Below, in pieces: positions 35,880 through 63,633 of a stretch of DNA of 64,000 bases. The notes beneath the pieces were generated by a model. It did no database searches. It was not told where the DNA came from and was given only the letters and a program-made list of their open reading frames with translations. Made by a program: the position numbers and the translations under genes. The DNA is from Schmidtea polychroa (taxonomy: Eukaryota). Location of the stretch: contig CM097885.1 of the NCBI GenBank assembly GCA_044892525.1, positions 16,866,001 to 16,930,000 of the forward strand. Reading direction: 5' to 3'. How positions within the stretch are numbered: the first letter of the stretch is position 1; each line of letters starts with the position of its first letter.

Positions 35880-35897
35880 TGGTGAGCCCGACGTGAT
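35880..35897 (+). promoter_or_regulatory. Primer binding site, tRNA-Trp type
   Basis: TGGTGAGCCCGACGTGAT lies 4 nt after the LTR and is one mismatch from the classical tRNA-Trp PBS TGGTGACCCCGACGTGAT. Confidence 0.85.
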
Positions 35898-39977: not shown

Positions 39978-40058
<81 letters not shown>

Positions 40059-40414
40059 TTAATAATAATAATAATAAAAACATACCCATTTCTTCATAAA
40101 AAAGTTTGTTTTCATAAAATTTATTTCATAAATCATATAATTTGTTTTCATAAAAACTGGTTTCATAAAAAAAAAAAAATAAAAATTAATCATAAAAAAA
40201 TTTCATTATAAAAAAATTTAAATCATAAAAAAATAATAATTACCTCATTTGAAAAAGATGTACAAAGTATCGATAACATCTAACCAATCAGAATTGGATA
40301 TTATCGATGCTTTGTTCTCTGAATATGACTCATCGATGAGTCATTGTTACTAACTGAGTAATTTCTACTCACATAAAGACATGCAATACAAGTGCATGAA
40401 ATGTCTTTATGTAA

Positions 40415-40415
<1 letters not shown>
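39130..40415 (+). repeat. Left TIR (continues into an AAT tract)
   Basis: Reverse complement of 54715-55945, apart from a few substitutions, homopolymer and microsatellite length changes, and one 26-bp repeat unit. Confidence 0.95.
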
Positions 40416-40506
<91 letters not shown>

Positions 40507-40509
40507 TAA

Positions 40510-40606
<97 letters not shown>

Positions 40607-40780
40607 CTTAGAAAAATAGTAATCAACAAAATATATTTAAATTACAAATTTACAATTTTACATTGTCATTTTTACAAATGTCTGTTGCATTGATTGTTTC
40701 TTACAATCTTGGCTTCATTGACAACTATTAATAATAAAAAATAATAATTATAATAATAATTATTATTATTACCGAAATGA

Positions 40781-43700: not shown

Positions 43701-44656
43701 ATTATACATTTTTTCCTGATTAATGTTTTCGGGGTTTCAATATATTTACGACCACTCAACCTACTAATCTTTGAATATTTTGTCACAATAAAACTAATGT
43801 ATTCTATTTTGTTAATGGTCCAATTACTTCCCTTTTCATTTATTTTACTAATTTTTTCATTTAAAAGAGAGATACCATCATCAATAAATGTGTCGCTCCA
43901 TACACGAGCAGAGTTTGAGATTATGAAAGACTGAAATTCATCATTTTTCTCAAACTCTACTTTAATACAAAATTGAATTTTTACTGATTTCATTTTATTT
44001 ACAATTTCTAACAATTTTTCTATGAGAACGTCAGGAACAGAAAGAATTTTACAATTCAAGGAAGATATATCCAACTTAACTATTACATGGGAACTATTCA
44101 GGTCGGAAACTACGTCGACTATACCACTACCTACTTGGGGTACAACATCACTATTTTCAAATTCACTATTTTCAAATTCACTATTTTCAAATTCACTATT
44201 TTCAAATTCACTATTTATAACTTCACTATTTATAACTTCACTATTTACAACTTCACTATTTACAACTTCATTACTTACAACATCATCGTCGTCTTCACTA
44301 ATGACTATTATTTCTTTCATCTTTTTTGTGGGAATTTCTGTGGGAATTTCTAAATGTCTTTTATTACCTATTATTCCTATTAATCTATTGACTGTTTCCA
44401 TTAATTGTCGATTTTGTATCAACATGGCATTAATCATACTTTTGTTGGTGGTCCTATTATTGATTTTTGTTGATGTTTCCATTAATTGTCGATTTTGTAA
44501 GTTTTCGGTGTTCCTATTATTAGTTGATGATATATATTTTTGATACGCAATTTTGAAAACTGATTTTTTAGAAGGCATATATTGGGTTAAATGATTACGA
44601 TGTTTATCATAAAATTTGGTATATGTCGATGTTTCAAGAGATGGCATGTAGGACAT
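40781..44656 (-). CDS. polB: Protein-primed family B DNA polymerase with endonuclease VII-like insertion
   Basis: Exonuclease motifs YADFE, FHNLRGYD, YLKLDV. Polymerase motifs YIDINNLYG, KLLNNSLYGK, SDTDS. Insertion CHLC...VRDHDHFTG...CNTCN. 15-bp tandem repeat (NSEVV/NSEFE) at about 44150-44280. Confidence 0.95.
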   Translation of the reverse strand: MSYMPSLETSTYTKFYDKHRNHLTQYMPSKKSVFKIAYQKYISSTNNRNTENLQNRQLMETSTKINNRTTNKSMINAMLIQNRQLMETVNRLIGIIGNKRHLEIPTEIPTKKMKEIIVISEDDDDVVSNEVVNSEVVNSEVINSEVINSEFENSEFENSEFENSEFENSDVVPQVGSGIVDVVSDLNSSHVIVKLDISSLNCKILSVPDVLIEKLLEIVNKMKSVKIQFCIKVEFEKNDEFQSFIISNSARVWSDTFIDDGISLLNEKISKINEKGSNWTINKIEYISFIVTKYSKISRLSGRKYIETPKTLIRKKCIINVNNDDEFCFLYSVLALIKYDSTPDELRHLPSSYNLSDLIYNPADMPMKLSNISKFERQNPGYSINVLSYDETGLISGPIMKHPFIDIIYRSKIVGGTCLNLLLLQNRKTYHYVAISDLNIFLNCRNSSISSVRIYCKWCPRCLNGFRFEDSFIKHQGLCERNQLGTTMYTLPKDPLLEFTDYSKMITPPFVIYADFEAILPKDSKYYQKHLPISAGLLCINNNTGAKFYKSFIGLSCIDEFLKEINDIAKKIVTPYYYKNKNKKMIFTENDQINFNNSTNCHLCKKLLVKPVRDHDHFTGQFLGAACNTCNLSRKIYHTLPVVFHNLRGYDLHHILKFGLAKYKSWHISCIPVTSENFLSLFVHIDSLTVKFIDSCQFVNSSLKNAVSTLNTLPLTESEFRGSIIKSKGIFPYDVATSLDVLISTLELPPKWSDVSDDEYNKAKLIWQETSCNSLLDYMMVYLKLDVFLLADFFQQFRAKSIAHNRLEPLNFLGIPSLSWSSALLSLDKPIELLTDMEMYNFFEGGIRGGITFVNKHFVSSDENTELLYIDINNLYGWALSQKLPDGGFEWVTDDIALERLLIECTTEDLNQLDYGYTIEVDLKIPKSIHDKLDDFPVAPGKMCPPFSKVEKLLLTHDPKTHYVLHWRLLQIFLQLGVVVTKVHRAIRYTQSTVFKKYIDTNTQLRAASITPLDKDYYKLLNNSLYGKTVENLKKRINLRLCNSAQKLITYASKPAFKKSTRIDDDLISVLLMKESVCLDRPSYIGQTVLDLSKLRMYQLQYNELQKYRDEFNCEINIVASDTDSFFLEIKNCSLDILLPAMIRDSLLDTSNYNPQHPLYSRALDSVIGKFKDENKGLRYKEWVFLRPKCYSLLGDKETLKAKSVTLKDTGLDHNSYRDCYFNNKVYSVPQFRIASKNHQLYSIKNIKKALTNRDDKRYWKSKNKSLAYGHYRIGDTFIYDDDDNFDGEDY

Positions 44657-45612
44657 AACAAGTATGTTACACTTTTATATTCATGACCATAATATTTTTC
44701 CATAATATCGTCACAGTCATGATGTGTAACACTGTTACAAAAGGTTGGATATTTATAACCTATAAAATAAGTAAAATAGTATTATTATCAAAATTATTAT
44801 TATTATTATTATCAAAATTATTATTATTTATTATTACTATATAATCTGAGTTTATACGACAAAATATTCTGTCCCTCCCTTGCTCATAAGTGTATTATAT
44901 TTAAATTTATTTTAATTAAATAAAAACATATTCATTTTCTTTATAAAAATTAATTTCATTATTTGTTTCATAACAAAATTGACTTCATACATTTTCTTTA
45001 TAACAAAATTGACTTCATATTAATTTAAAAAATCATAATAATTTAAAGTAAATTAATTTAAAAATCATAATAATTTAAAGCATATTAATTTTAAAATTTT
45101 AAAAAACCTACATTTAGGTTTCTTGCACGCGAGATTGTGTACAGCATTATTTACTAAAAAATCATAATAATAATAATAATTTAAAAATTAAATTTACCAT
45201 AATTTCCGGAAACATTATTTTCAATTCCATTACTTGCTGAAAAATTATAAGTTCCCGAAACATTATTTTCATTAATGTAGACTAAAATATAAATAAAAAT
45301 AAAAACATATTAAAAAAAAAAATTACCCATACGATTTCTTCGAATAATTTCCTTGATTTCATTTGAAATATTTTGCATTTTGAATAAATGAAAAAGAATT
45401 ACAAAAACATAGATTATATATGTAACGTTTATCCAATCAAAATGCAGATAGGATAGAAAAAATTAACGCACACATATTCATGTCTTTGTTTAAAAAAGAA
45501 TGAGTCATCGATGACTCACATAGTAACAAATAATGTCTTTGTTACTCACATAAAGACATGCAATACAAGTGCATGAAATTTGTTGATATGAATAATAAAA
45601 TTAATTAATAAT

Positions 45613-45672
<60 letters not shown>

Positions 45673-45694
45673 CTTGTGACATTTAATACATTTA

Positions 45695-46079
45695 TTAAAC
45701 AAAATTATACATTGATAACAACCATGCAAGGCAATGTTGGCCACAAGTAATTGAAAATGGATTTTGATACCGAGTTCGATTATATACAATAGGTTTACCA
45801 ATAGTTTGCAATTTACTAATTAATAAATTTGGGTAATAATATCCAAAGGGATCGAATGCATATACTCGGTTTGGTTTCACATATACAGCAATCCAATGTT
45901 CACCTCCTAAACTAGATGTATGAGTATTGACGATTATGGCTTGATTATTTCTCAAATATGGAATTTTATCCAGTGGATAAACTCCAAGAAATTCGTTTCC
46001 CAATAATTGAGTACCAATTCGAGACACCTGAATAGAACTAATCAATAAGTTAAATTATAAAATAAAAATCTTACTCCAT
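45695..46079 (-). CDS. Adenain-like cysteine protease (probably with a 37-bp intron 46038-46074)
   Basis: NT...GEHW, FDPFG and YQ....TCGQHC catalytic motifs. ATG GA|GTAAGA...TTAG|T TCT gives MDSIQVSRIG. Confidence 0.88.
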
Positions 46080-46109
46080 AAAAAACTTTAATCTTTTAAA
46101 TTTCTTCAT

Positions 46110-47336
46110 TTATACTAGTACAGTTCGATTTGCAGTAATTTGGATTTCATTTTCAAAAACCCCATAGATTATTACATGGACTGGTTCAGTAGTTGCTTTA
46201 CCGAACTTAATATCCAATCTCAAATTGCCACTTTGAGGTAATTGACTTTGATTTAAATCAAAATCTGGAGCCAGAACAAATGTGAAAAATGGATAGAATG
46301 TTTTGAATTCTTCCAGACTTATACCACAATTAAGATTTTTATCCAAATATCCTAAATTTCTGACAAGACTTTGCATATATGAAGTACAATAATTATCATT
46401 ATCAAAATCTTGAGTATAAGTTTCTCGATAATCAGTATTTTTCGATAATGAAAGAGAAGTTACACTAAAGTGTTTGAATTTTGATGAAGATGTATCATAA
46501 GATCCGTTATATTGAGCTTCACTTTGAAAAGTTACAAGGATAAAATTAGGCATTCTTCGATCTCCAAATATTTGGTCCTTGTAAAAAGATGATGCTCCTT
46601 TAGCAATTGCAAATGATACAATTTCTTTTGTTTTTATCGGATAAATTGCATGTTTGGTATTTAATCCAATTTGATGTCCCGCTAATACAGACGATTCACA
46701 TCGAACTCTTCGAACCATTAATTTGGCATCGAGTAATATTAATTTAGGTGCTGCACCTGCAACTCCAGTTGATAATGACAATGCAGAATCAGATCTTTTC
46801 AATCTCATATGTACATTAACACCTGGTAGTAAATATTTGGGTTGATCCATAAAATCCAATTGTAGAGATGAACACATGTTGAAAGTTTTTGAGCCTTTAA
46901 TCCACTTTTTTCGATCATCAGATACACCATATCCCATTGGAGTTAGACAAGTATCTTTAGTATCATTATTATAATTTAAAATAGTTTCGATAATTGCCTT
47001 GTGAGCATATGTATTGTTTCCACCCTCAATTTTAATGTTATTAAATCCAAGAATAACATCTTTAAAGAGAGTATGAAACAAGAAATTATTAGGTTCAGTT
47101 GTATCATCTGCAGCTAATGCTTTATTGTCTTTATCTACAACTTTTATTTGAACATACAACAAAGTATCGTTCAAATCTAAATATTCTGTTTGAGAACCAT
47201 TAATGTAAAATTCCACATCATTTCTACTATCGGTAATAGAATTCATTGGAAATACATCTTCAAATGCTCCATATTCGATAACCGCCTGAGGCGATGGTCG
47301 ATCAAATAGACATAATTCAGATTTACCGCAAATCAT
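46110..47336 (-). CDS. Major capsid protein (double jelly-roll)
   Basis: 408 aa with Polinton MCP-type motifs KSELCLF, YLDLNDTLLYV, HTLFKDV, QPKYLLPGV and GNLRLDIKF; position within the element fits. Confidence 0.88.
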   Translation of the reverse strand: MICGKSELCLFDRPSPQAVIEYGAFEDVFPMNSITDSRNDVEFYINGSQTEYLDLNDTLLYVQIKVVDKDNKALAADDTTEPNNFLFHTLFKDVILGFNNIKIEGGNNTYAHKAIIETILNYNNDTKDTCLTPMGYGVSDDRKKWIKGSKTFNMCSSLQLDFMDQPKYLLPGVNVHMRLKRSDSALSLSTGVAGAAPKLILLDAKLMVRRVRCESSVLAGHQIGLNTKHAIYPIKTKEIVSFAIAKGASSFYKDQIFGDRRMPNFILVTFQSEAQYNGSYDTSSSKFKHFSVTSLSLSKNTDYRETYTQDFDNDNYCTSYMQSLVRNLGYLDKNLNCGISLEEFKTFYPFFTFVLAPDFDLNQSQLPQSGNLRLDIKFGKATTEPVHVIIYGVFENEIQITANRTVLV

Positions 47337-47722
47337 TCTTCAAATATGGTTCCGTGTCCTTTCATTCGTTTGTTTATATGCCTTCTCCCTCTCTTGCGTT
47401 TAGTTCCCATACTTGTTTTAATTTCACTTTCAAATTTACGTTTTACTGGTACCAGTGCTGGTTCAGTTTTAAACATACCAGGTATTACTTTACTTATTTC
47501 AGCAATTGCATTTGATTTCAACGATGGTAATATTTTCTTGTCATTCATAATTACATCTTTTGCAGTTTTCATACCGAAATTACCAATACGTTTAAGAATT
47601 GGTAACGCAAATCTACCAATTGTTCTCAACCACCCACTTCCGTACTGTTTACCAACAAAATATGGTAATTCGCCACCACTTTGGCTACCACTATACATAC
47701 TAATAATATCAGAATTAGCCAT
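47333..47722 (-). CDS. Small basic core-like protein
   Basis: QSGG and QYGSG motifs, amphipathic WLRTIGRFALPILKRIG and an Arg/Lys-rich tail; lies between penton and MCP. Confidence 0.7.
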   Translation of the reverse strand: MANSDIISMYSGSQSGGELPYFVGKQYGSGWLRTIGRFALPILKRIGNFGMKTAKDVIMNDKKILPSLKSNAIAEISKVIPGMFKTEPALVPVKRKFESEIKTSMGTKRKRGRRHINKRMKGHGTIFEE

Positions 47723-48734
47723 CTACTTTACGAAAATGTAGTGTCAAATGAGTTTTTGAATCTTTTGCAAATTCGATTAATTGACCAGAATCATCTCTTA
47801 TATTTATTTCTATATTGTTTATACAGGATGTTGAAACAGGCAAATACATGGGATTTTCTACATTGATTTGTACAACATCATCTTGTTCATGTTTCTCAAC
47901 CCAAATAGATTTCAATAGAGGAACCAAAGAATCACCAACAATTATGGGTTCAATAATATTAGTATAGAGAAACATTTGATGATGAAGTTTAATTATTTTC
48001 GGTTTATTCATACCTACATTTAATTTTCCATCTTGAATATATGTTCCTTTTGATAATCCTAATGTTTTTATTAGATTTTTATCAAAAGTAATTTCAGTAA
48101 TATCAGTATTCAAACTGAATTTGAACAAAGTATTGTCTACTAATTCCAATGATTTAAATATTGATCCACAATTCTGAATTAAATATGATTGTAATTCCTC
48201 CAATTTAGAAATGTATAAATTCTCATTAAACGTATATGTATTTTCAGTTTCACCCTCAAACTCAACTTTCATTGAAATTGTCTCATATCGCGCTGCTACT
48301 TTGGTAAATCTCGGCCGTAGTACTTGGAATATATTAGTATGATTTCTATTACTCTGACTTGTTAATTCCAATCGTTTTGCCATTGCTAAACTATCAAATT
48401 TTATAGTAAAGGGATGATATTTACATTCAACTATTAAATATTGACGATCAATATACATTTTGACAATTGAATCGGAAGGACCAATATCAATTCGATCTTC
48501 TACATTATCAATGACAAAAGAGATATTTCTTTGCGTCTCTTTCTTTTTATATTCAATTTTAGCTTTACTATAAATTGGAAAGAGATTGTACACAAATGTA
48601 AAGTCAAGGAGAGCAACTTCCCAATTACCATTTAAATAAATCGGATTTTGGAGATTGACCATAAATTTACTGGCAGTGTTTTCTGGATGTATATTCGGAC
48701 AACTATTCCTTGGCAAAATAATGTAAAAATTCAT
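47715..48734 (-). CDS. Minor capsid protein (penton)
   Basis: MNFYIILPRNS...PENTASKF...L.GNWEVAL N-terminus. YTNIIEPIIVGDSLVPLLK...YLPV...IEINIRDDSG...LHFR C-terminus. Confidence 0.85.
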   Translation of the reverse strand: MNFYIILPRNSCPNIHPENTASKFMVNLQNPIYLNGNWEVALLDFTFVYNLFPIYSKAKIEYKKKETQRNISFVIDNVEDRIDIGPSDSIVKMYIDRQYLIVECKYHPFTIKFDSLAMAKRLELTSQSNRNHTNIFQVLRPRFTKVAARYETISMKVEFEGETENTYTFNENLYISKLEELQSYLIQNCGSIFKSLELVDNTLFKFSLNTDITEITFDKNLIKTLGLSKGTYIQDGKLNVGMNKPKIIKLHHQMFLYTNIIEPIIVGDSLVPLLKSIWVEKHEQDDVVQINVENPMYLPVSTSCINNIEINIRDDSGQLIEFAKDSKTHLTLHFRKVDG

Positions 48735-49371
48735 TTTACGAGGTCTCGAGACGATATCCATGATGGGTTTTTATATCCATGCCATTTGACATAGTATTGT
48801 TTATCCTTACCCACCATTTTAGTTTTCAATATTTTTTGAATTCTAAATACTTTTGGGGGAGGAATGACTTGTAATTCTTGCTCATAAAATTTCCCTTGTA
48901 CAATGTTATTTTCAGAATCTCTGATGACATACATCACAGGGTTCTGGCTAGTATTTATTTTCGAAATTACAAAGACTTCATCACTCCAATTTGTATCGAA
49001 ATTTTTAATAAATGGTGATGCACTAATTTTACTAATTCTAACATGGTCACCAACTTTATATTTCGGTTTTGTACTTTTTTTCAGATTTTTTAGAATAGAA
49101 TGTTTTTGATGTGATATCAACCGGTCTCAATCCATTAAGTCCTCGATGTGATGAATTATTATAACTGGTTATAATTTTTGGTAAAACCAATACCCATTTT
49201 TTATTACCTTGATACACGAACAATTTCTTTAATCTATCTCTCAAGGTTCTGTTAAATCTTTCAACATGAGCAGCTTTGTATTGAGAATGTACCGAGTAGT
49301 GATTTATTTTCAGTTTATCGAGGATTTGCTTAACTTTACTGTTGTAGAATTCTTTACCTAAAATAATAATA

Positions 49372-49458
<87 letters not shown>

Positions 49459-49846
49459 CTAAATCCGTTTGTAAATTATTAGGATGTCCATTTTTAAATA
49501 AAATATTAATAGCTTTGGACATTTCATCTGCAGATTTTGACTTGACTGGTATTGCTCGTGCAAACCTGCTGTATACATTAATACACGTTAAAATATATTT
49601 ATACCCCTTGTTAATTTTTGAATAGGGTATCATCTCCATCAAATCCATTTGCCACAAATCATTTATTCCATATGTTTTATACGCTCTTGTTGGAAATCTT
49701 TTCTGCATTGGTTTGTTCAAACTGTACGCTAGTTGATTTGATAACCACTTCTGGGTTTCTTTTTTCGAATTCGGAACTCTTTTCTTTAATTTTGCCACTC
49801 CACCGAAACCGGCTTCGTCTTCTGGGTTCGTCCAAATCTTCTCCAT
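48731..49846 (-). CDS. Retroviral-like (rve) integrase with C-terminal chromo-like domain; one intron (49358-49458) and one frameshift (~49105)
   Basis: WQMDL, spliced QTDLG|KEFYN, KAAHVERFNRTL, KYKVGDHVRISK, YYVKWHGY...SWI. Confidence 0.9.
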
Positions 49847-49901
49847 TACAACAGGAAGATTTAAAATTCAAATTAAGATTTGGTAATGATTGACCCATTG
49901 T

Positions 49902-50393
49902 TTATGATGATGATTTTAATAAACCTGCCCCTCCCAATAAAGATAATGCTATTGGTATCAAGGCTGCAATGAAGCCTCCTTGTTGTTTATATATGATTTT
50001 ACGCATACGTTTTTTATTTTTAGTATTTACTAATGATAATAATGGTTTCTTGTGTCTGTTCAAAATCTTTTTATTTGATGTACTTATACGGAATTTACCT
50101 TTAACAACTTTAATTAAAATAGCAAGTAAATCATCAATAACATAATTTGGAAAAGACTGTAAAATATTCATTCTTCTCATACTGGGAGCCTTAAGTAATG
50201 CAATGAAAAACGGAAAACTACGATGAGAATTACTCGGCGGAATATGATTACTCGGTGGAATACGATTACTCGGCGGAATATTATCAATAAGCAATTTTTT
50301 CGATGGTGTGAAACTAGTTTTTGGTGGAATCTTAACCACTTTTGCAGGTTTCCTTCTTGTAGGTTTTGTCTTTACACGAGTTTTTAGTAACAT
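49902..50393 (-). CDS. Basic Polinton structural protein with hydrophobic C-terminal peptide
   Basis: Lys/Arg-rich, ending QQGG-FIAALIPIALSLLGG; typical small conserved Polinton ORF next to the ATPase. Confidence 0.7.
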   Translation of the reverse strand: MLLKTRVKTKPTRRKPAKVVKIPPKTSFTPSKKLLIDNIPPSNRIPPSNHIPPSNSHRSFPFFIALLKAPSMRRMNILQSFPNYVIDDLLAILIKVVKGKFRISTSNKKILNRHKKPLLSLVNTKNKKRMRKIIYKQQGGFIAALIPIALSLLGGAGLLKSSS

Positions 50394-50414
50394 GATTGAT
50401 AATTTATTTTGGTT

Positions 50415-51038
50415 TTATCTTTGTTTATATACTATAGCTCCTTCCTTGTTAAATATATCTGTTCTTACTCGTAATTCATCAGGACACTGTTGTGTAAAAT
50501 CTAGAAAAATATATCCATGTGGGGATTTTGTTGCATCGACAAATGCATTCATTAAGAAATTTCGATTATTTGGATATGCTTGCCTTGCAAGAAAGTCAAT
50601 CACTGTAGCATCTCTCGGATTTTTGAAAACAACTAAATATTGAACATTCAAATTACGAGTTCGGTGAGATCCACCTTGATGAAAAAGATTTTGAGTGATA
50701 AAAATTACAGTGACACCTTTATGTCTACTAATTTTTGTAAACAAATTATTAAAATCCTTTTCTTTATTTGCTTCTTGATATAAATCATCAATAATAATCA
50801 CATCACCCTGTCGTAATCTAGATGACCAGTTTTTATCGAACCCTTTTATGATTGTCATTTTGATTTTACAAAACTGATCTTGCGTCATTCCGCTTTCATC
50901 ATCAGCTCCCCTATGCCAATAAATTTTATTAAATTTTGACTTGAATAATTTTGATTGTAATAATTTACAAACAAACAATGTTTTCCCGCTACCACTCGGG
51001 CCAACGATTTGGTATACTGCATCATTTCTTAATTGCAT
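50415..51038 (-). CDS. FtsK/HerA (A32-like) packaging ATPase
   Basis: Walker A GPSGSGKT, Walker B IIIDD, SRH..VTVIFITQNLF, FKNPRD, PHGYIFLDF. Confidence 0.93.
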   Translation of the reverse strand: MQLRNDAVYQIVGPSGSGKTLFVCKLLQSKLFKSKFNKIYWHRGADDESGMTQDQFCKIKMTIIKGFDKNWSSRLRQGDVIIIDDLYQEANKEKDFNNLFTKISRHKGVTVIFITQNLFHQGGSHRTRNLNVQYLVVFKNPRDATVIDFLARQAYPNNRNFLMNAFVDATKSPHGYIFLDFTQQCPDELRVRTDIFNKEGAIVYKQR

Positions 51039-51146
51039 TTTTTATTTTTAATTTTAAAATATCTAGTTATTGTTTATATTAGATGATTTTAATGAACTCT
51101 TGCTAAAGTTGTATATAAAGAGTAAAATTTCATAAATGACTTAATT

Positions 51147-51584
51147 ATGCTTGCAAATATAAATTATCGAGGAAATTTTGATGTTTCAAAAATGAGGTTC
51201 CCACCAGGAAAACCACAGCAAATTGTCGATAGAAGCGGGAAATATCCGATAATATTTTTCAAGACTGGCAAATGCAGAATTATGGGATGTAAGGAACCAT
51301 TGGATATTAATAAATTACAATATCGAATCAATAATATTAAAATTCAATCAATTACCGTTACTATGGATATGGGACATACTATCAATTTATACAAAATATC
51401 GAGAAAATGTGATTGTATGTTTGAACCGGAATTGTTTCCGGCATTAAGACTATTAAAATATAACCCTATATGTGTCAATGTGTTTTCAAGTGGAAAGGTT
51501 GTCATGCTTGGGTTGAGAAATTTAGACTATAGGGAATTTGTTAACAATGTTCGGAATGAGTTAAATTCATTGGTCGATTTCTAA
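51147..51584 (+). CDS. TATA-binding-protein (TBP)-like protein
   Basis: Two TBP half-repeats: IIFFKTGKCRIMG and FEPELFPALRL...VNVFSSGKVVMLG. TATA-like GTATATAAAG about 35 bp upstream. Confidence 0.85.
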   Translation: MLANINYRGNFDVSKMRFPPGKPQQIVDRSGKYPIIFFKTGKCRIMGCKEPLDINKLQYRINNIKIQSITVTMDMGHTINLYKISRKCDCMFEPELFPALRLLKYNPICVNVFSSGKVVMLGLRNLDYREFVNNVRNELNSLVDF

Positions 51585-51659
51585 TTGGTTAATTTCTAAT
51601 TGGTTAATAATAATAATATTAACTGTTTAGATGTCATTAATGCTAGCGCGGCAAAATCA

Positions 51660-51982
51660 ATGTCTGAGATCGATAATTACGGTAAATTTTTAATTTATAT
51701 ATATTTTTTATATATTTTATAGATGAATATTCCAAAGTGATGTTAAATTGCCTCAAGTATTTCTATCCTCAATTGAATGAAATTCTGAAGGACAGGGATC
51801 CAGAGATTATACCAGATTTGGTATACAATGCAACAAGAATCTGGATGTTCGATATATTAAATCAATTCCAATGGGATATCAAGATCGACAGAATGCAGAA
51901 AGAAATGGAATATCCATGTATCATTGGATGCAGTTGGTCGTTATCAGCGATATGTAGAATGGAATTTAGTAAAAACACTTAG
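51660..51982 (+). CDS. Hypothetical two-exon protein (intron 51682-51722)
   Basis: ATG...TAC G|GTAAAT...TATAG|AT GAA joins in frame with ORF 51737 (MSEIDNYDEYSKVMLNC...). Confidence 0.6.
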
Positions 51983-52072
51983 AAGATATTACTATTCTAG
52001 GATTGTTGATTTAAATTAATAAATATTTTTTATGTATTTTGTTTTTTTTTTTTTTATATATTGATGACCAAA

Positions 52073-52125
<53 letters not shown>

Positions 52126-52352
52126 TAATAATAATAATAATAATCATACATGTGCAACATTAATGCAATTTAAACAAAGACACATTAATGCAAACCATGT
52201 GCAACATTGATGCAATTTAAACAAAGACATGTGCAATACAAATGCAAAGCATGTGCAACATTGATGTAATTTAAACTTTAATCTGATTGGTTGTTCCATT
52301 TATTTTGAAGGTATAAAAACCCTGTACCATTTCATTTTAATCATAATTCACG

Positions 52353-52760
52353 ATGGTCAAGAAAAGCACTGAAAAACCGAAAGATGAACTTGTTCAGCCT
52401 GTTCAAATGTTCCACAACTACAAAATGTATTTTTTAAAAGAAGAAATCAATATGAAATTGGTTGCACCGGTCAAGTTAATTCCAACTCAATTTCAATTCT
52501 TATCCGGCACGCTTTCAATGGTAGATGTTAAAACCATAGATGATGTTTTCAAACGGTTGAATTCAAATCTATCATGTAATCAAAATGCATGGTTCAACAA
52601 CCGATATGCAAAATTTTATGATGCCTTTGATGAAATCAGTTTCAAAGAAAACGAAAATTGGTATATAACAATTGCAATCCAAGGATATAAAGTCGATAAT
52701 AATGATGTGTATTCTCCAATTTGGAAAATTATGTCTGCTAGGCTTTCACAACTATTTTAA
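52353..52760 (+). CDS. Hypothetical 135-aa protein (possibly beta-barrel/SSB-like)
   Basis: Clean ORF with CCAAT (CTGATTGG) and TATAAAA upstream and AATAAA downstream; the fold guess is weak. Confidence 0.6.
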   Translation: MVKKSTEKPKDELVQPVQMFHNYKMYFLKEEINMKLVAPVKLIPTQFQFLSGTLSMVDVKTIDDVFKRLNSNLSCNQNAWFNNRYAKFYDAFDEISFKENENWYITIAIQGYKVDNNDVYSPIWKIMSARLSQLF

Positions 52761-52912
52761 TGTATTTAATAAATGTATATAATGTATTTTAATAAATGTA
52801 TTTAATGTATTTAATCTTATTTATTTTATTAATATTAATGCAACAGTAATGCAAATTTAACAAAGACATTCTATAAACAAACTTACATTATAGTTTAAAA
52901 GTGTTAATAAAA

Positions 52913-53329
52913 ATGACTACAGAAAAAGGTTAATTTTGATTAATAACTTACCGAATTATTTATTATTTAGAAATTGTAATCAACTTTTTGTTGGAAAAAT
53001 TGGCAGAAATAGCTGGTGTAAATGTTGAGGATATATTATCTGTTGCAAATGCATTAAATATAGGCTGGATAGTTGAAAGTCAAGATTCAGGATTTGATGA
53101 AAGTGAAGTGAGTCAAGAAACTGATGTAGAAATTGATGGAGAAAACACCCAAGAAATTAGTGAAAACACCCAAGAAATTAGTGAAAACACCCAAGAAATT
53201 GATGGAGAAAACACCCAAGAAATTGATGGAGAAAACAATCAAGAACAACCTAACGATTGTATAGATCATGTAGTTGATAATATTATGAAATGTGGAGATG
53301 ACTATTGTGAATGTGTTAATAAATGTTAA
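52913..53329 (+). CDS. Hypothetical acidic two-exon protein with 21/24-bp repeats (intron 52929-52970)
   Basis: ATG ACT ACA GAA AAA G|GTTAAT...TTTAG|AA ATT is in frame with ORF 52988. Contains ENTQEI repeats and a Cys-rich end. Confidence 0.6.
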
Positions 53330-53371
53330 ATTTTAAATTTTGTTTTTTATACATAAGAAAAATAACAAAAA

Positions 53372-53558
53372 TTAATATTTATTTAAATATTTAAATAACA
53401 TATACAATAAAACAACTCCTGTTGTGAGTTTAATATAGTTTTTCATTTTTCTTTTGATTTCATCAGTTTCTTTAGCATTGCGGGCGAGTTGATTGAGTAT
53501 ATCCCATCCGCCATTATCTTCTATCCATGGACTAAACTTGGATTTGATTATCTAAAAA

Positions 53559-53613
<55 letters not shown>

Positions 53614-53914
53614 TTACTTCTAAAGACCACTGATAATAATGTTCTGAGTCATGTTGGCTTTTCGCAATGATTATCTTCATGTAGGTGAACCCTACAATAA
53701 TTCTTGTCCATTTCATGTCTTCATCGCAGAGACATTGAAATATATTGTTAAAATAATTCTTCTTTGATTCAAGACAATCCATATCAAGCATTCTCTGGTA
53801 GTCGATATGGTTGCCTTCAATAATTTGTTCGGTCCGATTGACCAGGAAATTGAGGCTGTCGACTATATTCGCTGTGACTAGTCCATTTAGAACGTTTTCA
53901 ATAAATTTAGACAT
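53372..53914 (-). CDS. Bcl-2 family protein, two exons (53618-53914, 53372-53551), 158 aa
   Basis: BH1-like KWTRIIVGF. The intron GAA|GTAAAT...TTTAG|ATA restores BH2 PWIEDNGGWD and the tail anchor LTTGVVLLYMLFKYL. Confidence 0.85.
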
Positions 53915-54023
53915 TTTTTACAATAATTTTTAATATACTGTCTTATTTATACTACTGTGTGTGTAATATGATTCTGATTGGTTGATAGACTATAAATGTA
54001 AAACATAATAGATTTGATACAAC

Positions 54024-54524
54024 ATGAAAACTATATTTCTATTGCTAATTATTATAAGGAGTGTGTGCTCACACAATACGACAATAACGGTGGAGTCTTT
54101 TAATAAATCAATATGTATTTGTCCAAATACCGCCAAGTTGATGGATATTTTATATATTCTTGACAAACCAAAATGGGCAAAGCATCCAGGAAAAAGAATA
54201 TCCCAAAGATTGGAGAATTTAGAAAACAGCTATGACCTATCTTTTGAATATATACAAAATATAAAATTTAAATTGATTGATCATATTGAGGTTTTCAATA
54301 ACTCAATTGTTGAAAATAAAAAGAATATGAAAATTATTGATAAGAAACATGAACATTTGTTAAGAAAGATTGATTTAATAATATTCGAAATTCGAACAAT
54401 AAAAGAATCGATAGAAAATTTGAAAACCAATTCAACGTTACCAATTTCAAACAAGATGGCAGCAAATATGAGTACATCAATATTTAAATGGCCATTGTTA
54501 ATTTTAAATTATTTCATTGTTTAA
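54024..54524 (+). CDS. Hypothetical secreted/surface coiled-coil glycoprotein
   Basis: Signal-like MKTIFLLLIIIRSVCS, several N-x-S/T sites, heptad-rich middle and hydrophobic C-terminus. Confidence 0.6.
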   Translation: MKTIFLLLIIIRSVCSHNTTITVESFNKSICICPNTAKLMDILYILDKPKWAKHPGKRISQRLENLENSYDLSFEYIQNIKFKLIDHIEVFNNSIVENKKNMKIIDKKHEHLLRKIDLIIFEIRTIKESIENLKTNSTLPISNKMAANMSTSIFKWPLLILNYFIV

Positions 54525-54625
54525 TAAATGTATTGATTTAAATTATCTTTTGTCTGATATATTATTATTATTATTGGCATAAATATTATTAATTTAATTA
54601 TTATTATTACTAGTATTGTCATAAA

Positions 54626-54714
<89 letters not shown>

Positions 54715-54715
<1 letters not shown>

Positions 54716-55067
54716 TTACATAAAGACATTTCATGCACTTGTATTGCATGTCTTTATGTGAGTAGAAATTACTCAGTTAGTAACAATGACTCATCGATGA
54801 GTCATATTCAGAGAACAAAGCATCGATAATATCCAATTCTGATTGGTTAGATGTTATCGATACTTTGTACATCTTTTCAAATGAGGTAATTATTATTTTT
54901 TTATGATTTAAATTTTTTTTTTATAATGAAATTTTTTTATGATTAATTTTTATTTTTTTTTTATGAAACCAGTTTTTATGAAAACAAATTATATGATTTA
55001 TGAAATAAATTTTATGAAAACAAACTTTTTTATGACGAAATGGGTATGTTTTTATTATTATTATTAA

Positions 55068-55124
<57 letters not shown>

Positions 55125-55945
55125 TGTTATTATTATTATTATTCTGTAGCGACATACAATAAATTTTGGTTTACCAAAAAAGAAGTCTTCTAAAAATTAG
55201 AGTCGTGTGATGAGTCTTTCTTTTAAAAATAAATGATTGGTCTTTGTTCAAAAAAGTCATCGATGAGTCATACAAGGGGGGGGGGTATGCAAAAAAAAGA
55301 AACCCCCTATCTAAACTATGAGTCATCGATGAGTCTTTGTCTATATGTCTTTGTTTAAATGTACTTAAATATTTGATTAAATGTCTTTGTTTAAATATTT
55401 GTTTAAATGTATTTATTTAAATATTTGTTTAAATGTATTTATTTAAATTTTTGTTTAAATGTATTTATTTAAATATTTGTTTAAATGTATTTATTTAAAT
55501 ATTAAATATGTCTTTGTTTAAAAAATGATGAGTCATACATACTTTAATAATGAGTCAGTTGGCTTTGTTCCAAAAATGATGAGTCATATGACCTTGTTAC
55601 TAAAAATAGAATGACCTTGACCTAGTTACTAAAAATAGAATGACCTTGACCTAGTTACTAAAAATAGAATGACCTTGATGAGTCATCGATGACGTCACGT
55701 GACATTGTTACTAAAAATAGAATGACCTTGACCTAGTTACTAAAAATAGAATGACCTTGACCTAGTTACCGTGGTTACCACGGTTGCTATGGATGAGTCA
55801 TATAACCTTGACCCAGTTACCGCTGTTGCTATGGATGAGTCATCGATGAGTCATATGTCTTTGTTTTGCGCTGAGTCATCGGGGGGGGGGGTTATGCAAA
55901 AAAATGACAAAAAACGATGAGTCATGGAGCACACTTCTCTCTACT
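54715..55945 (-). repeat. Right TIR
   Basis: Inverted copy of 39130-40415. Confidence 0.95.
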
Positions 55946-55951
55946 AGAACT

Positions 55952-56520
55952 TTATATGAAATAAAGAAATATTTAGTGAGGTTAGAACAAGATGTAGACG
56001 AAACTAAGGACGTTTTGAAACTTCTCGTTAAAGCAGTATATTCGATGTTCGAAATAGAGATAGAAGTAGAGGATGAACTAAAAGGAGTAGTTAAAGAAAT
56101 GAAAAATAGACTGCCTGAAGTAGTACAGAAATTTGGCGAAGAGGATACATTTTGCGAGAGATCAGTAATTGAAAATTTAACAAAAATTGAAATTAACAAG
56201 GATGTGATAATAACAGCTTTAACTTATATTGTTTTAGAAATTGGAACGTATGCGTTCGCGAAATCAGATAAATTAGATAACTTGATAGACATCGGTGCCA
56301 GACTAGTAAACGAATATCTAATGAACTGGGTAAAGGAAAATGGTGGTTGGAGAACACTGTGTTTGTCTCTAACAGAAAAGAAAAACGAGAAACAAGAGAG
56401 GAAACCACCTCAAAAACGAGTCAATGAGAGAGTTCGACCAGAACTGAGAAAAACTATGATATTTCCGTGGGCAATGTTTATGATGATTACATTTTGTGCA
56501 ATAATTACGCAGACATCATC
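55952..56520 (+). CDS. Polyprotein part 2: Bcl-2-like domain plus hydrophobic signal/anchor
   Basis: In frame with Gag across the TSD (VRT|LYEIKK). BH2 NWVKENGGWRTL, degenerate BH1 INKDVIITALTY, then hydrophobic MIFPWAMFMMITFCAII. Confidence 0.75.
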
Positions 56521-58320
56521 ATTAGTTGCATATGATTGCTCCCAAACTGAAATGGGAAAAATTTATTCAGTAGTTGATATGTCGGAATACCCAGGTGCGT
56601 ATCCTAGTAAACTGAAAATAGAAAATGATATAAAATATTACGTGTATCAAGAGTCTGATTTACGAAGAACTCAAGTAAGAGAGTGTATTGTCAAACATAC
56701 AACATTTGTATTCTATTGTGACAAATGGAGTCATACGTCACTTATAAAAATGCATGCGATACCTAGACCAGTTGAGGTACTCCCAGAAAACTGTCTAACA
56801 GCATTTCAAACCGGAGAATTAAAAATAAGTCCGGAAATTCGTTTAAAGGAAAATTGAATCATAGGATACGAGAAACAATAATTGTAAAAGGAGTTATGAA
56901 AGCAAATGGCGATTGTGAAGGTGAACCATACAAAATGAATGGTAAAATTGTTCAGCACACAGTTGTGATGGAAGAATATCTCACAGAGTTAAGAGAGTTC
57001 GAAGGAGCTTTCGACGATGATACGGGAAAGCTACAAACACATCCATTCTGTAATATGAAACAAACAAATTGTCAAACGGGGGAATCGATTCTTGTCTATA
57101 ATGTCGAAACCAATAAGTGTAATTTAGCACACTTAAAAACTATGAATTTTAAAGAGCTAGTGGGAGAACAGTTTAGAGATAAACCTGATAGTTTTAATAC
57201 GAAATATAGACCAAATGATACTATTAAGTCAACTCCAATATGGACAAAACAAATGGGAACAGTTTTAATGTCTACATTACCAGAAGATGGCATGCGATTT
57301 GTAAAAAAGGAAATCACCTACAAATGTGGTCGAATGGTGTATGTAACAAATTATAAAGGCGTTTATGTGTCTAGAAATGTTGTGGAAGAGGCAAAAATTA
57401 AAATTCACAGAGATGATATTAAACTTACTCATTATTTTAATAATAAAATTGATTATTTGTTTCATTTTAGTCAAAACATCATGGAAAATGTATATAGAGA
57501 AATGATTCTAAACGATTGCAAGCTGAACAAAGAGATTCTTCGAAATCGAATGGCGATGGCAATTACGAATCCAAATTTAGTAGCACCTATGCTAATATCA
57601 GAAAGTGGCGTGTTTGCGAGAATTTTTGGAGAAGCGTTATACAGTTACAAATGCAAAGAAGTCTCAGTGAAAATTACTAAATATGAAAAATGCACAAACG
57701 AACTACCAGTAAGCCTCGGTGGAAAGATACGATTTATGGAACCGATAACTAGAATTTTGCTTGATGAACAAACTAAACCAAAGATTTTACAATGTAATAG
57801 ATTATTAGCACCCTTATACCGATTAGCAACAGATTCATGGATAGCTTTACCAGACTATCGTGGAGTCAAGACTCCAGACAAATTAGAATCAACAAATCTA
57901 GAATACCTGATAAATTTCACATCATTAAACAAAATGGCACAAATGGGTTTGTACCCAAGCGAGGATATTGAAGAAGCTCAAAGAAATTTGTTGTTTTCAT
58001 CCAAGAAAGAACGAGTAATTTCAGAAATGATTGACACGATATTATCGAATGGGGAAGGAAAAGTAAATTACGAGTATTTGCTAACACCTGATCATTTCAA
58101 ACGAGCTACATACAAAACGATGGAAAAGATTTGGGGTAAGTTCATGTTTTTGGGACAAGCATGTGCAGGCTTAATCGGAATTTACGTAATCGTGATAACA
58201 GCAAAGGTGATAGTGTCACAGATATTATCAGTACATCGAATATATGCAATATCTGGATGGTCATGGAAATTGATTATTGGCTGTATTCCATTGTTGGCCA
58301 GATTCTTTATTACAGATCAT
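56521..58320 (+). pseudogene. Polyprotein part 3: chuvirus/gB-like class III fusion glycoprotein (one frameshift ~56850)
   Basis: LVAYDC, VRECIV...FYCDKWSH, GDCEG, DCKLNKEIL...GEALYSYKC...CTNELPV...FMEPITRIL...C, followed by TM segments. Confidence 0.75.
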
Positions 58321-58679: not shown

Positions 58680-61600
58680 AAAAAATATGCTTGGTCTACC
58701 ATGCAGCTATGCACTAATGACAACAGTAGTAGGAGGAAAACAACCTCGAATAAACATACAGTTTAACAAGAGAAAAGTGGAAGCTTTATTAGACTCAGGC
58801 TCAAGTCATACTATAGTAGCGGAAAGCTTCTTGACGTATCAGGAGAAAGCCAAAATAAAACCAACGAATCACATTATTAAATCAATGTCACATAATGCAC
58901 TAAATATTGTTCGAAAATTAGAAGTTAAACTGATAATTGGAGATCAAGAAATAATTCATTGGGTATCAGTGATGAGAAAAAGTCCTGTAAAATGTCTTAT
59001 TGGCATGGATGTCATGGAGCAACTACATGGAATTTCTCTTGATCTGAGAACTGGAAAACTAATAAAAGGACAAATGGGTGAAGTAGTGCCTGAAGTAGGA
59101 GAGGTATTTCTAAACCAAACATTGGAAGTACCACCAAAAAGCGAAGTAATATACTATGCAGATGTTATGAGGGTATCAGATGAGGAGTACATATTTGAAC
59201 CAAATCCAAAGCTGGTTGAAAAATACGATTTGCCTATGTGTGACGAAGTAGTGAAAGTCCAAAATAAGTCAGTACCAGTTAGAATAACAAATTATAGTGC
59301 AAGATCCGTTGAAATAAAGCCCAAAACCAAATTGGGAAAATTGACAAAAATCAAATCAGAGGAAGCTCAGAAGTTACCGAGAAATATAAAAATTTATAAA
59401 GAACCTCAGATCACAAACAAAGATTTAACGGATTTACAAAAACAAGAATTTGGTTCATTATTAAAGAAATATAGAAACGTATTTGCAAAACATGATTATG
59501 ATTTGGGACTCACTCAGGTGATTGAGCATGAAATACCATTACTCAGCGAAACCCCAATAAAATTACGGCCGTATAGAATGCCATACACACATCAGGAAGA
59601 AAGTGATCGGCAAATCAAAGCAATGAAAGAATTCAATATAATAAGAGATAGTTCCTCACCATTTTCATCATCAATAGTAGTAGTGAAAAAGAAGGACGGT
59701 GATTTAAGATTTTGTGTCGACTATCGAAAATTGAACCAAGTTACGAGAAAAGATACATATCCTATTCCTGTTCCACAGGAAATGTTCGATCAGATGGGAG
59801 AGGTGCAATATTTTACGGTAATAGATCTTAACAAAGGATATAATTAATTTTAAAGAAGATAGAAGGAAAACTGCATTTTCAGATGGGAAGGGTCTATATG
59901 AGTTTAACGTGTTACCATTCGGATTAACAGGAGCACCTGCTACATTTCAGAGAGGTATGAATTTTGTTTTGCGCGATATACCACATGCATTAGTGTATAT
60001 TGACGATATAATAATATTTTCGAATAGTTTTCAGGAACATTTGCAGGATGTGGAAACAGTATTCAAGCGATTGTTAGAAGCAAACTTAAAAATAAAACCC
60101 TCCAAATGTGAATGGGGGAAATCTGAAGTCGTTTATGTGGGTCATATCATTTCGCGTCGAGGTTTGCAAATCTAGAAAATTGAGAAATATCCTATTCCCA
60201 AGGATGTAGATCAGGTTCGACAATTTCTGGGATTAGCTAGTTATTACAGAAAATTTATTAAAAACTTCTCACATGTCGCACAACCTTTGAATATGTTGTT
60301 AAAAAAGCAAGCAAAATTTAAATAGACAACAGCGCAGCAAGAAGCGTTTGATAAACTCAAAGAAAGTTTAATTAAACAACCAATATTGAGATGCCCAAAC
60401 TTTAAAAACCCATTTATTTTAATGACAGATGCCAGTAACTTCGCGTTAGGCGCGGTATTAGGACAGCAAGTAGAAAGGGAAAAAGATCATGTAATTGCTT
60501 ATGCCAGCAGATCATTGAAACCTCATGAAAAGAATTATTCAACAATCGAAAAAGAAACGTTAGCATTGGTATATGGGATAACTACTTTTCGACAATATCT
60601 AGTGGGCAGAAAATTTGTCGTCTTTACAGATCACAATCCGTTACAATGGCTAATGAAGCACAGAGATTCAGCTAGTAAATTAATTAGATGGTCAATCGCG
60701 TTACAAGAATATGATTTCGAGATAAAGTATCGTACAGGGAAGTCAAATGCAAATGCAGACGCTATGTCAAGAATACCAGTGGAAAATAATGTTGATCAGG
60801 ATGAGAAAAATTGCGAAAATACAATATTTATGGCAATAAAAACCGCAAATAATATAGAAAAATTACAAGATGATCAAGAAAATGACGAGGAATTAAATCA
60901 GTTACGCCAACATGCTGTCACAATCAAAAAGGAGAGTGACTGGAAACATGTTATCGAGGAAAACCATAAATACATTATCCATGATGGTTTGTTAAAATGT
61001 GTGCAAAATGAAAATTTACTAATTATTGTTCCGACAAAACATCGAAAAGCATTACTGTTGTTGTATCACGATGGAGCATTGGGAGGTCATTTATAATCGC
61101 GAAAAACATTATCAAGATTGAGACAGAAATATTATTGGAAAACAATGGAACAAGATGTCAGACAATGGTGTCATACTTGTCAGATATGCCTAACTAGACG
61201 AAATACGGGACGAAAAATAAAAGTTCCACTTAAGCCTATGCCTGTACCAACGGCACCAATGGAAATGACAGCAATGGATATCGTCGGTCCATTGCCGGAG
61301 ACAACTAATGGCAATAAATACATTATTGTTTTTTGCGATTACCTTATAAATGGCCAGAAGCTTATGCAATCCCAAATCAAAAATCAGAAACAGTTGCGAA
61401 AATATTTGTAGAGAATATTATTTTTCGATATGGAGCACCAAAGAAATTACTAACAGATCAAGGAACAAATTTCCAGAGTGAATTATTTAAGTCAATTACA
61501 GAATTATTTGGTATATTGAAACTTAGTACTTCACCATATCATCCACAAACAGATGGTCTAGTGGAAAGATTTAACGGGACGTTAATTAATATGATATCAT

Positions 61601-62130
61601 CCTATGTGAATAGAAAACAAAAGGACTGGGATTTATTCATCAAACCATGTTTATTTGCGTATCGAAATGCAATAAATGCAAGTACTGGTGAAACGCCTTT
61701 CTATCTCATGTATCTAAGACGAAACAATATGCCAATCGATCTAGAATTTCAGTCACCTATTTCCCAATATATGGATGCATCAGATTATAAAGTAGTTATG
61801 CAGGAAAGACTACAGTCAGTATGGGTCAAAGCAGGACTTAAAATAAAGCATCATCAAGAAGCATATAAAGAATGCTATGATAAACGCGCACGGGCGCATG
61901 ATATTGAAATTGGAGATCTAGTGTATATAAACAAACCAGAACCAACAAAGGGATTGTCAACGAAATTACAACGACCGTTTAAAGGACCATATCTGGTATG
62001 CGATACAACATAGACTAATTTAAAATTGCGTCCACAAAACAATAAAAAGGCTGGAACAATCATCGTTCATGTAAATAGATGTAAAAAGATACTAGCAGAA
62101 TATGAATCACGTTACCCATTAAGATCAAAA
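58680..62130 (+). pseudogene. pol: Polyprotein part 4: protease, RT, RNase H, integrase (several stops and frameshifts)
   Basis: LLDSGS, RFCVDYRKLN, LPFGL, YIDD, TDAS...TDHNPL, H-H-C-C, MDIVGP, TDQG, ERFN and GPY. Lesions near 59845, 60175, 60322, 61095, 61345 and 62011. Confidence 0.93.
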
Positions 62131-63633
62131 CTTAATAAAGATGAAGGAAACACATTCCTTAAACAAAAGTTTACAAAAAACCCTGCCCCATTGAGTTACA
62201 TCAATAAAGTTTTATTGATTACAACAGTAATGATTATCAATATAATGTCAGTAAATGCAGTGAGAGTATTCCCGTTATATGCAACTAATACAGTTGTATT
62301 ATTAGACAAAGTTCATATTTATTCAACATGTACTAAAATAGTTTGGGTTTATTATGCTGGAGAAGCAGAAGAAATAGAGATAAATAATCTAATAAACTAT
62401 TTTGAACCCCCAATAAAATTGAACAGCACCAAAAATATTTATGTGGCTAGACAATTAACAATGAATTATGAATACCCTTGGTTAATTACGCAATTGGATT
62501 CGAAAAGTAATAATACAAAACTACAAAATCTTATACGCATTAATATTTGGACAAAGAGATTACAAAATCGGGTATCAATTGAACCATTGGTAAATGGAAT
62601 TGACGTATATTGGGAACCCCGTGAATCCCAACAAATAAAAATAGTTTTTCAAAATTATGCGATCGATACACTGAACAGCAGAAAACCCTTTGTAAATTAT
62701 GTCAATTTAAAACAACATCACACGTATAATATTCACATTCATTATTATGAAAAATCTCTATATGAAAATGGAACCGAAACTAACAGTCAATGGGTCAAAA
62801 TCCATTCTAGTCAACACATGATACGATTAGTTAATGAAACAAACCGAGTAATCTTTCACATCTACAATCAAACGGTGAATGTTTCCCGGAAAACGGACCC
62901 CAATCAAAAAGCTATTTTACATTATTACGGAAAAATTCAATTAATATTAAATGAAAAAAATAAATCTCAAATATTGACTTTTCGTCAACGTTCACCAATA
63001 TCGACGTCAAAATTAGTGTTCATCAAAATTAAATATTATAGACGATCTCTATATTCAAATCTGTGGCAATTGACTTTAGTCGAAAAGACATTCGTGCAAA
63101 TTCCAATTGCCAATTTGCAGCATGAATATCGAAATGTTCCAGATCAATCAAATCAAATTCCAAGCTCTGTCAAAGGAGCCGTCATTTCTAACATTAATGC
63201 ATCAATTAACAATAACGAAACCATATCATCATTAAATACTGATAATGACATTGTGTGTGTAACATTATTATCAACTAGTCTAACTATAATAATCTTTCTC
63301 ATTATTCTCATCATCATTGTGTCAATTGAATCTCGAACAATATCCAAATCTCATACGAACCAATCCGAGATTGCGAGACTTTGGATTGTCTATGAAAAAC
63401 TTTTGTGTAGTAAGATACAAATACTTTGCATGCACACAGTGCTCGAAGTGGAACAAAATATGTGCCGGGATAGGCATGCTGTGGCACCCGGGATTCCAGG
63501 CTTTTATGCAGAAATTTTCAGTTGGGTGTGTTGCAAAACTTTGGGGGGGTGTCCAACAAATTTTATATATAGACACATTATATATAGAGGGGGTCGCAGT
63601 ATAAATAACTCAACAAACAACTTGCTGGTTTAA
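62130..63633 (+). CDS. Polyprotein part 5: type I membrane protein with FN3-like ectodomain
   Basis: Same frame as the integrase C-terminus. Signal-like VLLITTVMIINIMSVNA, GIDVYWEP...NLKQHHTYNIHI, many N-glycosylation sites, TM IVCVTLLSTSLTIIIFLIILIIIVSI. Confidence 0.65.

Follow-up and report, generated by a model that had tools for sequence, protein, structure and literature searches.

A chuvirus/gB-like glycoprotein within the polyprotein of a decayed Ty3/Gypsy element of Schmidtea polychroa

How does a fusion glycoprotein of viral type come to be encoded between the Gag and the protease of a Gypsy retroelement, and what might it do there? The question is raised by a stretch of 64,000 nucleotides from Schmidtea polychroa (CM097885.1, positions 16,866,001 to 16,930,000; hereafter the window), AT-rich eukaryotic DNA with a GC content of 24-39%, in which a sequence-only reading had inferred the independent capture of a chuvirus-type env by one Gypsy lineage. 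We find that the locus is very probably a decayed copy of a multicopy, Burro-like Ty3/Gypsy family whose members encode a single polyprotein of ~3,400 residues that would be threaded through the ER. In the family, the polyprotein order is Gag, ubiquitin-like unit, Bcl-2-like domain, signal, class III ectodomain, transmembrane (TM) helix, protease (PR), RT, RNase H (RH), integrase (IN), second signal, second ectodomain and second TM helix. The copy in the window is dead and unable to make the glycoprotein.

Layout of the element and state of its glycoprotein

The features of the element within the window are as follows.

34940..35875, + strand: candidate 5' LTR of 936 bp, TG...CA with short inverted ends, assigned from sequence
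35880..35897, + strand: primer-binding-site-like stretch that begins TGG, 4 bases past the candidate LTR
36436..39129, + strand: Gag part of the polyprotein, with capsid, CCHC knuckles and ubiquitin-like unit(s) (PF03732, E 2e-7; PF00098, E 4.9e-8)
39130..55945, no strand assigned: Maverick/Polinton inserted in the polyprotein gene, with inverted ends of ~1.4 kb that are 94% alike, the first 30 bases identical
55952..56389, + strand: Bcl-2-like helical domain ending in a BH2-type GGW motif (four lines of evidence, given below)
56450..56533, + strand: internal signal sequence of the glycoprotein (hydropathy 2.2; the PF24664 match begins here), presumably cleaved
56522..56857, + strand: glycoprotein ectodomain, piece 1, ending at a frame change (PF24664, E 6e-13; 41% identity to the relative P0010 over 108 aa)
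56840..58137, + strand: glycoprotein ectodomain, piece 2 (PF24664, E 1.6e-65; 40-44% identity to polyprotein relatives)
58138..58320, + strand: membrane-proximal region and TM helix, then a weaker hydrophobic segment (hydropathy; long helix in the P0010 model)
58738..59061, + strand: aspartic protease (PF00077, E 9.5e-7; motif at 58786)
59400..62150, + strand: RT, RNase H and integrase with GPY motif, with at least six stops or frame changes (PF00078, PF17917, PF17921, PF00665; stop map)
62191..63351, + strand: second membrane-protein module in the integrase frame, consisting of a signal-like segment (62191-62271), an ectodomain of ~330 aa and a TM helix (63241-63351), from hydropathy

The candidate 5' LTR is not confirmed by a pair because the window holds no second LTR; no 3' LTR was found within the 64 kb, and the 3' end of the element lies beyond the window, which contains ~11 kb of internal region, Maverick excluded. 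The primer-binding-site-like stretch presumably resembles tRNA-Trp. The order PR-RT-RH-IN, the CCHC Gag and the GPY motif in IN are those of Ty3/Gypsy (Metaviridae), and the Pfam scan of the window gave no match to the BEL/Pao Peptidase_A17.

Gag sits ~17 kb upstream of the glycoprotein (Env), across a Maverick with Pfam matches to Pox_A32, Peptidase_C5 (adenain protease) and rve (integrase). The 6-bp target duplication of this insertion (39124-39129 and 55946-55951) lies in the same codon phase on both sides, so that Gag and the downstream part are one gene; the window Gag also aligns with the Gag part of the Env-bearing proteins P0002, P0003, P0009 and P0026. The placement of Env between Gag and protease therefore stands as the order of the element, but the two are not adjacent, and the direct upstream neighbour of Env in the window is the Bcl-2-like domain. 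The Maverick looks complete and carries a TBP-like gene (51126-51584; PF00352, E 2.9e-16) as well as a Bcl-2-like ORF of its own (53555-53917, minus strand; PF00452, E 0.0045, below cut-off). This ORF does not align with the retroelement domain and, as far as such comparisons show, is not its source.

Two units had been omitted from the sequence-only reading: the ubiquitin-like unit in the Gag part (PF00240, E 2.5e-4, below the Pfam cut-off) and the Bcl-2-like domain, which directly precedes the signal sequence. For the latter, four lines point to a Bcl-2 fold, as far as sequence-based comparison allows: a match to PF00452 (E 0.011, below the Pfam cut-off); first matches in the ESM Atlas to the BID/Bcl-2 family (score 0.92, recognition 2345); a best PDB sequence match to 5vmn, 'Bak protein' (E 0.0024); and a score of 42.9 bits against a profile of six relatives, where 200 shuffles reached at most 11.2. 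A GGW motif of Bcl-2 type stands ahead of Env in 7 of 17 elements examined, and in the window the Env signal lies 35 residues behind it. Folding the domain from its sequence alone gave an uninformative model (pLDDT 42).

Much of the earlier description of the glycoprotein holds. The motif LVAYDC, said to follow a signal-like stretch, starts at 56522 (one base off), after the hydrophobic segment at 56450-56533, and the Cys-patterned ectodomain is matched in two pieces by PF24664 (Monjiviricetes_fusion; curated cut-off 27 bits), with 48 bits over profile positions 5-123 and 222 bits over positions 262-636. The frame changes between these pieces, at ~56840-56857; the protease, described as sharing the frame of the ectodomain, does so with the second piece but not with the piece that carries LVAYDC. 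As for the TM helices, there is one strong segment (58138-58242), and the second (58246-58320) is weaker. The window Env retains 13 of 14 near-invariant cysteines, and signal, conserved cysteines and C-terminal anchor, all features of class III glycoproteins, are present in this copy. Its breaks are the frame change that splits the ectodomain, at least six breaks in Pol, and the 16.8-kb Maverick that parts Gag from the rest.

The fold was modelled with AlphaFold2 on P0010, a natural relative of 748 aa that is 40-41% identical to both window pieces (97-row alignment, pLDDT 83). Against the PDB, all 39 matches listed are herpesvirus gB (best E 4.9e-14); there were 117 matches at E <= 0.001, with modest TM-scores, by target, of 0.19-0.45. 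Against BFVD, glycoproteins of chuviruses or chu-like viruses take the first three places (E 1.6e-43, TM 0.54/0.61). Tacheng tick virus 4, a BFVD match, is one that we take to be a chuvirus. The top structural matches are only 9-23% identical to P0010, and they are gB and chuvirus-like G proteins rather than non-fusogenic cellular proteins, cellular proteins being compared in the structure search through the PDB only. The model thus shows a predicted gB-type fold for the relative P0010, at 40% identity, and not for the broken protein of the window. By sequence, neither the Env piece nor an 18-row profile matched a solved fusogen in the PDB; centrin matches in that search, at E 0.05 or worse, were taken as chance. 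With PF24664 matched in both pieces and the fold of the relative, the class III glycoprotein of this Gypsy element is borne out as chuvirus/gB-like.

Elsewhere in the window there are a broken transposase at 31998-33493 (minus strand), which we take to be hAT-like, a 530-bp element with 211-bp inverted arms (15750-16279), and a pair of 1-kb repeats, 90% alike, at 7128-8146 and 27454-28465.

Relatives and the origin of the arrangement

The module had been called a family trait on the strength of a diverged copy at 9040-9500. Such a copy does exist:

9039..9483, - strand: fragment of a second, diverged Env copy, C-terminal half only (tblastn E 1e-53, 67-76% aa identity)

It spans ~148 codons at 70.6% nucleotide identity, is broken as well, and has neither a Gag nor a protease match beside it. 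As a partial Env without a Gag or protease neighbour, it is no proof by itself of the arrangement; that the module is a family trait is established by relatives elsewhere and by contigs from sequencing runs. A short Gag fragment at 34052-34174 (minus strand), 76% identical to the element's Gag, is a second trace of a diverged sister family. The 9-kb fragment lies, together with Maverick fragments (10645-11142, 84% to 47159-47765), between exons of the host gene RMI1 (1301-2383 and 13421-13891, minus strand; PF16099, PF08585).

A homologue search over 1.84 billion representatives gave 1,164 matches, and the top matches among the best 150 of these 1,164 are polyproteins. Of the 19 database proteins scanned, 13 have Env and protease in a common frame (P0001-P0004, P0006-P0009, P0011, P0012, P0017, P0020 and P0022), as do two JGI metagenome loci, L001, a single frame of 3,426 aa, and L003, a single frame of 2,693 aa that runs from Gag to past IN. 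In a third such locus, L002, a stop at 3058-3060 falls between the Bcl-2-like domain and the Env signal, a sign of either decay or read-through, and the single frame is therefore not universal. No relatives were found in viral contigs or GTDB genomes.

Several of these relatives have peculiarities of their own. The NCBI entry of P0007 (2,627 aa) calls it a hypothetical protein and places it in a Flavobacteriaceae metagenome bin, into which animal DNA has most likely strayed. In P0055 (797 aa), Env and Pol meet in another way: an N-terminal glycoprotein of the stand-alone group is followed by an RNase H-like region of Gypsy type. P0001, P0002, P0006, P0009, P0011, P0012 and L001 have two to four protease-like domains. 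The last of these has, within Pol, an additional signal-ectodomain-transmembrane unit flanked by copies of the protease (L001:4748-5335), and, past the polyprotein, a separate ORF of 496 aa (L001:10617-12107) that presumably shows a DEDD-exonuclease-like motif.

Was the glycoprotein acquired recently, and independently, by this one Gypsy lineage, as had been proposed? The best structural matches among viral models, chuvirus-like G proteins, would fit such a capture, and GAG-ENV-POL elements are not monophyletic in Pol in the available text of PMC13524379, making more than one origin of the order possible. The Env sequences argue otherwise. Among the matches listed, the nearest to the window Env are polyprotein-embedded Envs (36-47% identity), whereas stand-alone glycoproteins of ~650 aa are 21-30% identical to it. 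In an unrooted FastTree phylogeny of 122 rows, chosen by likeness to the window and including L001, L003 and the window itself, the embedded Envs group together, with long inner branches: the window falls in a group with an SH-like support of 99 whose 19 rows are 17 embedded Envs and 2 fragments. Outside it lie ~100 glycoproteins of stand-alone type, among which sit two rows labelled embedded by their long N-termini. The database rows were matches covering >230 of 313 residues, with one near-duplicate dropped (149 matches, 119 kept). Elements nearer in RNase H also tend to be nearer in Env, the identities to the window ranking roughly alike (RNase H 54-64% and Env 37-45% for L001, P0007, P0006 and P0004; 47-56% and 26-28% for L003, P0020 and P0017). 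The window Env groups with 16 other embedded Envs and the order had been published earlier, so that the claim of a new capture is not supported; a recent, independent one is already largely refuted, and we hold it to be very improbable. With one layout common to the relatives and their Envs in one group, the Gag-Env-PR arrangement is, to judge from these comparisons, an old inheritance.

Contigs from four sequencing runs of four studies on 55946-63640 (850, 1,934, 255 and 66 contigs) cover all 30 bins in each of the four runs, at identities from 85% to >99%; where the window changes frame, contigs of high depth have a length different from its own. The family is multicopy, and the breaks are specific to the window copy. 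The same data bear on whether an endogenous chuvirus gene merely landed by chance within an ordinary Gypsy element, as might happen in a window so rich in nested, broken elements. With the same order open in many unrelated relatives and even depth across Env and Pol in the four runs, this idea is refuted by the relatives and retains next to no probability.

Contigs in three of the four runs also join 56716 to 61999, skipping 5,282 bases; this is an internally deleted family member that has lost most of Env and Pol and keeps the Bcl-2-like side and the post-integrase module.

The second membrane module and a proposed polyprotein topology

The frame at 62014-63633 continues that of the integrase, from which one stop separates it; over its first 44 residues it is 62% identical to the integrase end of P0006, and the 515 residues past the integrase in the window contain 12 N-glycosylation sequons. 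A signal-ectodomain-TM pattern past IN is present in all six elements that reach so far (the window, P0006, P0007, P0017, L001 and L003; P0004 and P0020 end within Pol and are outside this count). Two hydrophobic segments arose in 0-6 of 300 shuffled tails for the five relatives and in 45 of 300 for the window. No such post-integrase tail is present in the env-less Gypsy in the same window, and as a layout the second module is well supported. That env-less element (21724-26427), which continues for 36 residues past its GPY motif, has two open ORFs and 152-bp LTRs that are 100% identical, and is therefore a young insertion.

The fold of the second module is only hinted at. Its ectodomains barely align among elements and are very variable; the module gave no Pfam match and no PDB sequence match, and no homologue of the ectodomain was found among proteins of 296-944 aa. 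The ESM Atlas returned fn3 clusters (0.92), a weak result at a recognition of 1485. With a leave-one-out profile, 0 of 300 shuffles scored as high for P0006, 1 for P0007 and 0 for the inner L001 unit, which are thereby linked, and 41 did so for the window and 16 for the L001 tail, which are not; the FN3-type motif was drawn from the same sequences as were scored, making these counts optimistic. A fold like fibronectin III is hinted at by such sequence comparisons. The last bin, 63397-63640, is very deep, and 63497-63572 is skipped by contigs of two runs; the bin is probably a separate short repeat, and the reading past the second TM helix is therefore unreliable.

By analogy with viral polyproteins, we propose that the family polyprotein would be threaded through the ER like that of a flavivirus or alphavirus. 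Translation would begin with a cytosolic Gag; the first signal would direct the gB-type ectodomain into the ER, the Env anchor would bring the chain back so that PR, RT, RNase H and IN are made in the cytosol, and the second signal and anchor would repeat the crossing for the second ectodomain. With one signal and one anchor around each ectodomain, Gag and Pol should therefore remain cytosolic, a count of crossings that fails if the weak segment at 58246-58320 is itself membrane-spanning. Signal peptidase would release the ectodomains and the element's protease Gag and Pol, and because all are cleaved from one polyprotein, Gag, Env and Pol would be made in equal numbers. The Env signal may stay behind and anchor the Bcl-2-like domain in the membrane by its C-terminus, as is usual for Bcl-2 proteins. 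Trimeric Env would then fuse enveloped particles with other host cells; the window copy does none of this. Most simply, such a design would serve to carry the element from cell to cell in an enveloped particle, while the Bcl-2-like domain would protect the producer cell from death.

The same element might instead use Env without any extracellular infectious particle, the glycoprotein fusing internal membranes or neighbouring cells, or simply being carried along in frame between two essential parts. Stops in an in-frame Env would kill Pol, and since Env cannot gain them without that loss, open frames alone are no proof that Env is under selection; the production of Gag, Env and Pol in equal amounts is unlike what known infectious retroviruses do; and the text of PMC13524379 at hand leaves cell entry by elements of gB type open. 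On the other hand, the cysteines and the fold are kept across relatives that are only 26-45% identical, and an in-frame deletion could drop Env, yet the long relatives examined keep full-length ectodomains. On balance we think an Env that serves no particle rather unlikely.

The second module may be the attachment partner of Env. In the fullest form of this idea, which we put forward tentatively and consider more doubtful than probable, these would be two-glycoprotein retroelements. Alongside the conserved gB-type fusogen they would carry a rapidly changing type I membrane protein, similar to fibronectin III in certain members and unrelated to it in other members, whose role would be to provide attachment or to trigger the fusogen, like gD and gH/gL with herpes gB, or to serve as a decoy receptor; the Env signal would double as tail anchor of a Bcl-2-like death inhibitor. 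If the second protein binds a receptor, that would account for the targeting of a gB-type fusogen on its own, and would give a handle on whether the elements move between cells.

Comparison with known systems

The closest described plan is that of the giant Burro/GYPSM1 Gypsy elements of planarians, in which, in the accessible text, env lies in frame between gag and pol and is linked both with 'gypsy Env' and with the fusion proteins of mononegaviruses (Arkhipova and Yushenova, 2019; PMC6431247). The likeness extends to a single ORF and to a Gag with CCHC knuckles, a Ubi/SUMO-like and a BCL2-like domain, and env in frame before PR, then PR-RT-RH-IN, according to the same text. Env lies between the BCL2-like domain and PR in the window order too, in an open frame in P0001 and L001, the window copy being broken. 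The differences are those of size and content: the window family has ~3,400 codons, as against 4,873-5,140 given for Burro (PMC6431247); Burro exceeds 30 kb with LTRs as there described, the window element being far smaller as far as the window shows; and no Pfam match to MATH, BIR, ankyrin or dUTPase was found in the window element, unlike Burro. Because it is shorter and lacks matches to these four domains, we do not class the element as Burro; it works like Burro, the two being compared by description and not by sequence. Burro1 has a different captured domain, RING-BIR, which is reported to block apoptosis (cited in PMC13465017, text seen in part). The text of PMC6431247 on Burro mentions no membrane module after IN, which the window element has. 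Nor was a description of such a module found by full-text searches or in the text of PMC13524379, though one may appear in figures, in Repbase entries, in Grohme 2018 or Lee 2026, or in subscription papers, most of which lie outside these searches.

A recent survey (Chary and Hayashi, 2026; PMC13524379), in the portion available, finds that the elements of Nematoda, Bryozoa and Platyhelminthes have Env of gB type alone, in the order GAG-ENV-POL, and lists nine flatworm elements, six of them from Schmidtea mediterranea; judged by their size of 14.5-18 kb, we infer that these six are Burro. Its HSV/gB-type 'errantiviruses', as described there, share with the window element a Ty3/Gypsy Pol, a gB-type class III Env, conserved cysteines and the order Gag-Env-Pol; they are intact copies only, whereas the window copy is broken. 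The words 'polyprotein', 'Bcl', 'Burro' and 'fibronectin' are absent from the main text of that paper as available.

Among other LTR elements, Anakin, mosquito BEL/Pao elements with a chuvirus glycoprotein, captured the same glycoprotein family in the partial account at hand, but belongs to BEL/Pao where the window element is Gypsy (Dezordi et al., 2020). Two further candidates were set aside on what their available text gives: Troyka (PMC12440569), with CG ends and not relevant, and Atlas virus (PMC9094657), a BEL/Pao element with a class II Env at its end. Chuvirus (Jingchuvirales) G and herpesvirus gB have fold and cysteine pattern in common with the Env of the window family, which would, unlike them, be cut from a retroelement polyprotein, and beside which no homologue of gH/gL or gD was seen. 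In Anakin, Env reportedly lies downstream of pol.

An in-frame gB-type Env between Gag and protease is thus already known, and the element is one more, dead, family of this kind. What the locus adds is a compact version of the Burro plan, without BIR, MATH and ankyrin, which suggests that the ubiquitin-like unit, the Bcl-2-like domain and the gB-type Env are the older core. If the tentative pairing with a second glycoprotein is true, it would also fill a gap named in the text of PMC13524379, namely how elements with gB alone enter cells.
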